The position numbers and the translations under genes were made by a program. From Escherichia coli (GTDB lineage Bacteria; Pseudomonadota; Gammaproteobacteria; Enterobacterales; Enterobacteriaceae): 34,162 nt of DNA. This document shows positions 32,279-32,561 of the stretch, in pieces (within the stretch, counting starts at the first letter, position 1; every line of letters starts with the position of its first letter). The stretch lies in NCBI RefSeq assembly GCF_003334315.1, contig NZ_QOWR01000050.1; one strand, 5' to 3'. The notes under the pieces are model-generated. The model worked only from the letters and a program-made list of their open reading frames with translations. It was not told where the DNA came from and made no database searches.

Positions 32279-32332
32279 ATGTCGCAAAATCAAGAAATTA
32301 GTAAGAAAGAACAATACAACCTGAACAAGTAA
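32279..32332 (+). pseudogene. ttcC: Displaced 5' fragment of ttcA (tRNA 2-thiocytidine synthase) marking the prophage attachment junction; 17 codons then stop
   Basis: ATGTCGCAAAATCAAGAAATTAGTAAGAAAGAACAATACAACCTGAACAAGTAA translates to MSQNQEISKKEQYNLNK*, resembling the TtcA N-terminus MQENQQITKKEQYNLNK… as I recall it. Confidence 0.65.
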
Positions 32333-32430
32333 GGGCAAAAATCACAACTATCTGACTCATAAGTGTTTTACTTATTTTTCAATGTGTTAAACATCATCAG
32401 CGAGAACAATAAACTACGATAATCCACTCT

Positions 32431-32482
32431 TTTTTTGCCCCTTTTTTGCCCCTTTTGCAGCGTTTTGCCCCATTTTTGCCAC
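32431..32482. repeat. Five tandem, helically phased (~10-11 bp) T-tract/GCCCC repeats followed by an A9 tract
   Basis: TTTTTTGCCCC (32431-32441), TTTTTTGCCCC (32442-32452), TTTTGCAGCG, TTTTGCCCC, ATTTTTGCCAC, then A9; lies about 100 bp inside the prophage side of the ttcA-fragment junction. Confidence 0.7.
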
Positions 32483-32522
32483 AAAAAAAAATTCCAAAAC
32501 GTCTCAATCAAAGTCAAACCAA

Positions 32523-32561
32523 CCGCAGCACGTTCTTGCATACGACGTGACTGCGGTTTTT
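32523..32561 (+). terminator. Orphan rho-independent terminator just inside the prophage end
   Basis: CCGCAGCACGT (32523-32533) / ACGTG(A)CTGCGG (32545-32556) stem with one bulge, followed by T5. Confidence 0.55.

Follow-up and report, generated by a model that had tools for sequence, protein, structure and literature searches.

The interval 32279-32561 of the Escherichia coli DNA analysed in this study (34,162 nucleotides of contig NZ_QOWR01000050.1, one strand, referred to below as the window) is the right attachment site (attR) of the prophage Rac, situated inside the E. coli gene ttcA. Rac is a standard cryptic prophage of E. coli K-12 whose excision has been studied before, and the locus as such is already known. 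In the phage-side arm of this attR (the P arm) we identified five tandem, helically phased repeats consisting of a T tract followed by GCCCC or a variant of it, and copies of the same motif were found in the opposite arm (P') at the other prophage end, as well as beside the integrase genes of related phages. On the strength of this sequence pattern, the five repeats are very likely arm-type sites of the Rac integrase, IntR. The complete picture, in which the attR anatomy, the predicted arm-type sites in both P and P' and a hairpin common to lambdoid phages are taken together, is the best explanation of the data, and we consider it likely to be correct.

The repeat array at the Rac junction and its recurrence elsewhere

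The gene order at the 3' end of the window is ydbK/pfo, ompN and uspF, followed by genes of the Rac prophage. The counterpart in K-12 lies at approximately 1.435 Mb (the window is the reverse complement of the K-12 map), and the annotation of the matching stretch names the right end of the cryptic prophage Rac, the pseudogene ttcC (b4638) and uspF; between positions 32200 and 32650 the two sequences differ by 8 mismatches in 451 bp, with no indels. A 26-bp core, identical to that of the left attachment site (attL), is flanked on one side by a 5' fragment of ttcA and on the other by DNA carrying ynaM, ynaE and pinR. The initial annotation of this DNA, made from the sequence alone, had proposed a Rac-type attachment junction, which is borne out by the K-12 annotation, the sequence identity and the core shared with attL. 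All of the elements that it had described (ttcC, the five repeats, a run of nine adenines, or A9, and a hairpin with a T5 tail) are present at the positions it gave (Table 1).

By eye, the five units of the array (U1-U5) read T7GCCCC, T6GCCCC, T4GCAGCG, T4GCCCCA and T5GCCAC. They are 10-12 bp long, with their G positions at 32437, 32448, 32457, 32467 and 32478 (spacing of 11, 9, 10 and 11), and Tandem Repeats Finder reported a repeat at 32432-32480 with a period of 11, 4.8 copies and the consensus TTTTTGCCCC. Unit 3 (TTTTGCAGCG) is degenerate and unit 5 carries GCCAC; the array is effectively composed of two 11-bp-spaced pairs (U1-U2 and U4-U5) with a degenerate unit between them. The exact sequence TTTTGCCCC occurs three times in the window, every time within the array. 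It had also been claimed that the repeats are phased with the helix and form bent DNA, and the analysis supports the phasing and predicts a strong bend. When T-tract phasing at 10.5 bp was scored in approximately 34,100 scanning windows, the array ranked first (power 12.6, with 7.7 for the next locus), and its predicted bend was the maximum of the whole stretch, at about 93 degrees over 42 bp (mean 23, standard deviation 12), a wedge-model figure that is approximate.

The repeat unit recurs at the opposite end of the prophage. In the attL of K-12, read in the orientation of the window, the intR stop codon is followed directly by TTTGCCCCcaaTTTGCCCC, which contains two TGCCCC copies, 11 bp apart and oriented like the five P-arm units (TAG-TTGCAAAG-TTTGCCCCcaa-TTTGCCCCatt, the P' fragment past intR reading TAGTTGCAAAGTTTGCCCCCAATTTGCCCCATTTAG); about 45 bp of a diverged ttcA 5' end come next, and then the core. 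Motif copies of the same orientation in P' point to integrase arm-type sites rather than to sites of a host factor or an excisionase. Of the two functions that had been envisaged for the repeats, that of integrase arm-type sites is thus favoured, while that of host-factor sites is disfavoured.

IntR contains, according to Pfam, an Arm-DNA-bind_2 domain (PF12167, residues 5-69, E = 4e-26) and a Phage_integrase domain. A tblastn search of a phage collection gave relatives in E. coli phage PHB10 (69% identity), an Stx1 phage (43.5%), Klebsiella phage RothD (41.7%) and Aeromonas phage AsXd-1 (42.8%), in which the DNA past int is unrelated to Rac, with the partial exception of PHB10, which also targets ttcA. 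All four carry a TGCCCC pair with 11-bp spacing that abuts int (at +5/+16 or +14/+25 from the int end) and one or two further pairs starting at +208 to +222, i.e. 197-211 bp beyond the first, all of them on the int-sense strand; the pairs occupy the ranges +5 to +25 and +208 to +258, and the Rac copies are located at +10/+21 and +208/+219/+238/+249. Two distal pairs are also present in the P arm of P27, whose integrase is 43% identical to IntR. As a control, phage loci bearing the hairpin described below together with other integrases were used, and 117 of these 121 loci have no TGCCCC within 400 nt upstream of the hairpin. The GCCCC core, the 11-bp pairing, the orientation and the distance from int are kept in six otherwise unrelated att types from E. 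coli, Klebsiella and Aeromonas phages, which means that motif and geometry track the integrase family and not the neighbouring sequence. T tracts are a trait of the Rac, PHB10 and Stx1 lineages. Since the distant relatives keep the pairs and not the T tracts, the conserved recognition core would be TGCCCC(A/T) in 11-bp pairs rather than the T tract. A peptide-pattern scan of viral contigs with IntR recovered solely copies that were 99-100% identical, mostly ending at the int stop, and was therefore uninformative on divergence. Nothing relevant to TGCCCC arm-type sites or to the arm sites of Stx phages was found in the literature searched. The att regions of the Stx1 phage, P27, RothD and AsXd-1 also have in common a box, GATCG(T/C)CCA(A/G)GAGC, at about +125 nt past int, which may be a common core or an attB in a conserved host gene.

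The array coincides with the end of the homology shared by Rac-type elements. In a search of phage records with positions 32337-32900, the query split at approximately 32488-32519: the part 32337-32488 matched solely ttcA-integrating elements (Rac-SA53 and SPF_0923, the latter named as a Salmonella phage but containing sitABCD and the flank of E. coli), and from 32519 on the matches were to many unrelated lambdoid phages. When Rac-type junctions with different cargo were aligned, homology stopped exactly past unit 5, which is explained by the arm-site reading, and the substitutions among Rac-type arms were found in T tracts and spacers, not in GCCCC. An exact search for the predicted attP junction revealed five IMG/VR contigs that hold the intact attP order, namely int, the P' pair, the core, GTAAGGGCAAAAA, about 90 bp and the repeats. 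The A9 run, which had been counted as a part of the element, has to be removed from it: Rac-type homology ends before this run, K-12 has CG+A7 at its position, and Rac-SA53 and the element carrying sitABCD differ as well. From these comparisons of sequence, the run is a mosaic scar.

In other ttcA-integrating elements (L005, L007, L008 and L002 = ON032529) the sitABCD operon for metal transport comes immediately after the P arm, in place of the module formed by the hairpin, ynaM, ynaE and pin. The record ON032529 is labelled as a Salmonella phage yet carries the pfo-ompN-uspF flank of E. coli. In the window itself, three phased copies of TTTT(G)C(T)CCAC (TTTTTCCAC, TTTTGCTCCAC and TTTTCCAC) were observed at approximately 33320-33362, between ynaE and pinR; they give the third-best T-tract phasing signal in the window and resemble arm unit 5 (TTTTTGCCAC).

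On the bacterial side of the core, an empty attB was reconstructed by joining the left flank and core of the window to the K-12 ttcA sequence beyond attL. This sequence is matched at 100% identity, and with at least 80% coverage in one piece in 2489 of 5426 complete E. coli genomes. Because the reconstructed attB exists in Rac-free genomes, the ttcC fragment and about 150 bp upstream of it are the native 5' end of ttcA, in agreement with the earlier view that the displaced fragment retains the native upstream region. The N-terminus of TtcA that the phage supplies in lysogens (MQENQQITKK...) differs from the native one at four residues, as reported in PMC4632033. Integration of the phage displaced the native ttcA promoter region together with the first 17 codons (ttcC), and the substitute 5' end of ttcA comes from the phage, at attL.

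Table 1. Features of the Rac attR and its surroundings (positions in the window)
Feature	Position	Strand	Remarks
uspF intrinsic terminator	32111-32138	+	Terminator scan; Term-seq 3' end at K-12 1435153 (primary uspF end); native ttcA upstream region begins here
Candidate native ttcA promoter (CTGACA-17-TACCAT)	32155-32183	+	Promoter scan, 9/12 positions; consensus match only; contiguous with ttcA in Rac-free genomes
ttcC, displaced native ttcA 5' end	32279-32332	+	ATG at 32279, 17 codons (MSQNQEISKKEQYNLNK), stop at 32330-32332; annotated as pseudogene in K-12
Exact consensus for integration host factor, IHF (AATCAAGAAATTA)	32288-32300	+	Pattern scan; bacterial side of core, inside ttcC; homolog in P' arm
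26-bp core (AAGAAAGAACAATACAACCTGAACAA), crossover region	32303-32328		Identical in attL and attR (window vs K-12 attL); labelled attB in the Rac-SA53 record
P arm of Rac-type attP, phage side of attR (~155 bp)	32329-32483		Conserved in K-12 Rac, Rac-SA53 and the sitABCD-carrying element
Inverted arm-motif copy (TTTTTGCCCT on minus strand, AGGGCAAAAA on plus)	32332-32341	-	4 bp from core
Candidate IHF site (TTTCAATGTGTTA)	32377-32389	+	One mismatch to WATCAANNNNTTR; A/T-rich 5' flank
Five tandem units, predicted integrase arm-type sites	32430-32482	+	U1 32430-32441, U2 32442-32452, U3 32453-32462, U4 32463-32472, U5 32473-32482
A9 run	32483-32491	+	On the mosaic border closing the att module; not conserved
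Stem-loop with T5 tail, probable intrinsic terminator or insulator	32521-32561	+ (int-sense)	Fold, homologs, compensatory changes, position past int
ynaM	32881-32994		Rac prophage gene
ynaE	33063-33296		Rac prophage gene

Predicted roles of integrase, excisionase and IHF at the attachment site

From this analysis we infer that IntR binds at the repeats and that IHF has a role in the reaction. According to the lambda paradigm, IntR would be a heterobivalent tyrosine integrase, whose N-terminal Arm-DNA-bind_2 domain would bind the arm sites and whose C-terminal domains would bind the core. The folding back of the arms, which lets the integrase bridge arm and core, would be due jointly to IHF and to the intrinsic curvature that the phased T tracts confer, and XisR, by binding the attR fragment, would direct the excisive complex. 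In a published GeF-seq study (PMC8407004) an in vivo IHF peak is present at the attL site homologous to the exact consensus found in ttcC. As for the candidate IHF site in the P arm, Rac, the Stx1 phage and P27 all have TTCAATNNGTTA at 57-68 bp ahead of their arm pairs, which is suggestive only.

The repeats have to be distinguished from binding sites of XisR, an excisionase with a DUF1233 domain (Pfam). Excisionases (recombination directionality factors, RDFs) typically bind tandem direct repeats in one att arm and bend DNA, and the units examined here are tandem, phased at 10-11 bp and placed in the P arm like the Xis sites of lambda. Moreover, DUF1233 excisionases co-travel with this integrase family, so that co-occurrence alone cannot separate integrase from excisionase sites, and the separation rests on the copies in P' and on one published gel shift. 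In that experiment, as described by Liu et al. (2015, Sci Rep 5:16074, PMC4632033), XisR shifted a 294-bp AttR probe, which includes the repeats, but not a 291-bp AttM probe. Primer mapping placed the AttR probe at 32205-32498 and the AttM probe at 32329-32619 of the window; both hold the five repeats and the inverted copy of the motif located next to the core. Because AttM was not shifted, XisR needs something within 32205-32328 or spanning 32328/9, and the repeats alone are insufficient. Sites of an excisionase should be bound by the cognate protein and be confined to one arm, whereas the motif abuts int in the P' arm of every family member examined, an unexpected place for such sites, and its geometry matches that of the integrase sites in both P and P' of lambda. 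It is therefore improbable that the repeats are XisR sites. The inverted copy, which is invariant across Rac-type junctions and was not seen in more distant relatives, could itself belong to a core-type site or to an XisR site, the latter because XisR binding is lost once the probe begins at 32329.

Another way of looking at the array would be to regard its low complexity or curvature as incidental; H-NS or Fis might bind such DNA, and its sequence would have no specific part in recombination. This would agree with its strong predicted curvature, with the degenerate unit 3, with a natural variant that lacks three units and with the lack of conservation of T tracts in distant relatives, but it does not account for the GCCCC pairs, their orientation and their distance from int, which are conserved in six unrelated att types, for substitutions that spare GCCCC, or for the scarcity of TGCCCC in the control loci. 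Because of this cross-family conservation we consider a chance or low-complexity origin excluded, the probability left to it being very small. Finally, the repeats might encode a small basic protein, since the window, K-12 and L009 share an uninterrupted 57-aa reading frame on the minus strand (32368-32541, ...KGQKRGKKR...). This frame starts in the hairpin module, however, which is a separate mosaic piece, and it was rejected as a candidate, being absent or in another frame in Rac-SA53, in L005-L008 and in the sitABCD element despite the conserved repeats; we attach almost no probability to it.

Integrase arm-type sites thus remain the preferred interpretation of the repeats, although several observations weigh against it. 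Besides the above-mentioned association of DUF1233 with the integrase family, no IHF peak was recorded at attR in the GeF-seq study (PMC8407004), unit 3 is degenerate in all variants, and a natural attP variant, L007 (IMGVR_UViG_2869936548_000004), keeps two of the five units. The last two observations indicate that not all five units are needed. The L007 variant fits a deletion between units 1 and 5, and it suggests that units can be lost from the array when slippage or recombination occurs between them.

The hairpin beyond the attachment module

Past the mosaic border, the plus strand folds at 32521-32558 into a hairpin of 14 pairs with one bulge and a 9-nt loop, followed by T5 at 32557-32561. 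The fold (-21.7 kcal/mol, z = -4.4) was matched by none of 200 shuffled sequences, and it has the structure of an intrinsic terminator, i.e. a stable G+C-rich stem-loop followed by a U tract; owing to the bulge and the size of the loop, it escaped detection by a simple terminator scanner. The description of this structure as an orphan terminator could not be sustained, as the stem-loop is common to many lambdoid phages, in which it is located downstream of int across attP. Homologs were found in 83 phage records and at least 120 viral contigs, including lambda (NC_001416 24162-24199, between ea31 and ea47), HK97, HK106, mEp460, phi80, Gifsy-1, P27 and many Stx phages. An integrase gene was detected within 3 kb upstream in 24 of 121 occurrences; it is on the same strand in all 24 and ends 349-722 nt before the hairpin in 23 of them (2021 nt in the remaining one); in 38 other occurrences the prophage contig ends less than 700 nt upstream of the hairpin. 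The reconstituted attP of Rac has it as the first stem-loop after int-attP, beginning 294 nt past the int stop. The next gene past the hairpin is usually a convergent pin or tfa, ending 50-170 nt away in many phages.

The outer stem occurs in several compensated variants (CCGCAG/CTGCGG, CCGTAG/CTACGG, CCGCGG/CCGCGG, CTGCGG/CCGCAG and CTGCAG/CTGCAG), and a few variants look like recombinants between stem types. Wobble cells comprise 83 G-U compatible with the plus strand versus 10 of the opposite kind (A-C cells, G-U on the minus strand), and the RNAalifold energy is -16.6 kcal/mol for the plus strand versus -5.9 for the minus strand; the MAFFT alignment A2, which misplaces the bulge column, was excluded from pair counting. 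On these counts and energies the plus-strand assignment is favoured.

A conserved element about 90 nt in length consists of an upstream half, GTAAAATCGGTAACGGCTGGAAATCATTCAATACTCGCACTATCGAAAGTTCACCAGCC, and a 3' half that is the hairpin. Besides more than 100 viral contigs, the element is present in lambda (24162-24250, minus strand), HK97 (L010 2450-2545), phi80, Gifsy-1, P27 and Stx phages. Rfam has no family for it, and the records of lambda and HK97 that were examined do not annotate it. Ahead of the hairpin, most phages have some 50 further conserved nt; these are missing from the Rac of K-12, where the second stem-loop only is present. In the RNAalifold prediction, the first hairpin of the full lambdoid element did not appear.

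As to its function, the chances that the hairpin terminates or insulates int-sense transcription are, in our judgement, about even. In the circular phage it most likely would end or insulate int-sense transcription, and in the lysogen it would be uncoupled from int and would stop read-in from the ttcA promoter. Arguing against such a function, the T tail is variable (T5 in the window, UUUCAUUUAU in the commonest type, absent in lambda), the strand-versus-strand comparison of per-variant folding energies gave no significant difference (p = 0.32), and in HK97 the hairpin lies 60 nt beyond a separately annotated sib; because HK97 carries both, the hairpin is not sib itself. Furthermore, the K-12 Term-seq tables of Adams 2021 contain same-strand 3' ends at 1435153 (uspF), 1434540 and 1434552 and none at the hairpin (K-12 1434724-1434730, ~1434727), and no 3'-end flank listed there contains the hairpin sequence on either strand. 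The RNA 3' end that a terminator should produce in vivo at its U tract was thus not seen by Term-seq, which low expression could explain. In a wider and more tentative proposal, possible rather than probable, the hairpin would be the truncated form of a widespread cis-acting RNA element, always located just past attP on the int-sense strand and acting beside sib as an insulator or retroregulator of int-sense transcription, and the TGCCCC pairs about 200 bp apart would be a portable attP signature of Arm-DNA-bind_2 integrases. If this is true, the post-integration element would shield the prophage end from host read-in, in this case from the ttcA promoter.

Two other readings assign the hairpin to a small transcript. 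According to the initial annotation, the native ttcA promoter could drive an orphan RNA of about 300 nt through ttcC, the core and the repeats to position 32561. In this reading the RNA may also be functional. Such an RNA is plausible, given that the native upstream region, the start codon and a promoter-like sequence are retained and that a T5 tail is present in this lineage, but the Adams 2021 tables, which list the neighbouring same-strand ends, have none at the hairpin, and the intervening sequence is accounted for as att DNA. The transcript finds no support in K-12 Term-seq (absence of evidence, not disproof), and we regard it as unlikely. Alternatively, a small RNA of the minus strand, related to CssrB of Shigella (RF02799), might have its 3' end at the hairpin, whose stem-loop sequence is shared with CssrB: an Rfam match at 32524-32661 on the minus strand (27.8 bits, E = 6e-4 in a 301-nt search) places the hairpin at the 3' stem of the model, and the convergent pin or tfa genes end close by in many phages. 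This match is driven by the hairpin alone and its score is far under the gathering threshold of 76 bits, the minus strand has no U tract past the stem, the G-U pairs favour the plus strand, and there is no Term-seq 3' end. Rfam scans of the window and five related loci gave solely this sub-threshold antisense match, and a literature search on CssrB found nothing relevant; the window is not a member of the family, and a CssrB-like RNA is very doubtful.

Further downstream, the strong "orphan" 3' ends at K-12 1434552/1434540 (minus strand) correspond to window positions 32735/32747 (plus strand), roughly 135-145 nt ahead of ynaM. The sequence there does not fold convincingly into a terminator (z = 0.49), and a promoter-like site at 32646-32675 could begin an RNA of about 60 nt or a ynaM/ynaE leader. 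The serine invertase gene pinR is cut after residue 113 by IS1 (inverted repeat and N-terminus of InsA, window ~33959-34162), unlike the copy in K-12 MG1655, which is intact; the window thus derives from a different strain.

Comparison with known systems and implications

The attP site of phage lambda comprises the arm-type sites P1, P2 and P'1-P'3, the IHF sites H1, H2 and H', and Xis sites. The Rac site resembles it in that a tyrosine integrase, predicted to be heterobivalent, is accompanied by a short motif unrelated to the core on both arms, that tandem copies with a spacing of about 11 bp abut int (the Rac P' pair being the counterpart of P'1-P'3), and that distal P-arm sites are located about 105-160 bp from the core, with a total of about 250 bp. 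Measured from the core centre of Rac (about +88), the distances are about 65-80 bp to the P' sites and about 120-165 bp to the P sites, which is close to lambda, and an IHF consensus is present beside the core in P', with the in vivo peak at attL (PMC8407004). The two systems differ in the motif (TGCCCC(A/T) in Rac, (C/A)AGTCACTAT in lambda), in the predicted arm-binding domain (Arm-DNA-bind_2 versus Arm-DNA-bind_1) and in orientation, as all copies of the Rac P and P' pairs are direct and P2 of lambda is inverted. In addition, the P arm of Rac has five tandem units with phased T tracts, and its DUF1233 excisionase needs, for the binding described by Liu et al., the core or the bacterial side of attR.

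The work of Liu et al. (2015, PMC4632033) concerns the same attL and attR, and it reports the 26-bp core, the four-residue change of TtcA and the binding of XisR to attR; the word "arm" does not occur in the passages searched. To judge from the literature searched, no earlier work has described the arm repeats, their attL copy or the hairpin.

The hairpin, in turn, is reminiscent of the sib-tI region of lambda and HK97, since both occupy the int-sense strand on the far side of attP, at a distance of a few hundred nt from int (294 nt in Rac, 227-276 nt for sib of HK97). Integration separates such an element from int, and in the prophage it consequently ends up at attR. It differs from sib-tI in having no sequence similarity to sib and an inconsistent U tail, and its homolog in lambda is 3.3 kb away.

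These results detail ordinary site-specific recombination biology for Rac and do not overturn its current understanding. What is new is the predicted assignment of IntR arm sites, with the family-wide TGCCCC pairs, the recognition of the A9 run as a mosaic scar and that of the putative terminator as a lambdoid post-attP stem-loop; within the literature searched, the att arms of Rac had not been dissected before. The conserved post-attP hairpin raises a small question in the transcription of lambdoid phages. The TGCCCC(A/T) pairs, spaced by 11 bp and present on both arms about 200 bp apart, are ready substrates for the biochemistry of IntR and XisR, and they would provide a simple sequence rule for recognizing attP sites and prophage ends of this integrase family in E. 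coli, Shiga-toxin, Salmonella, Klebsiella and Aeromonas phages.

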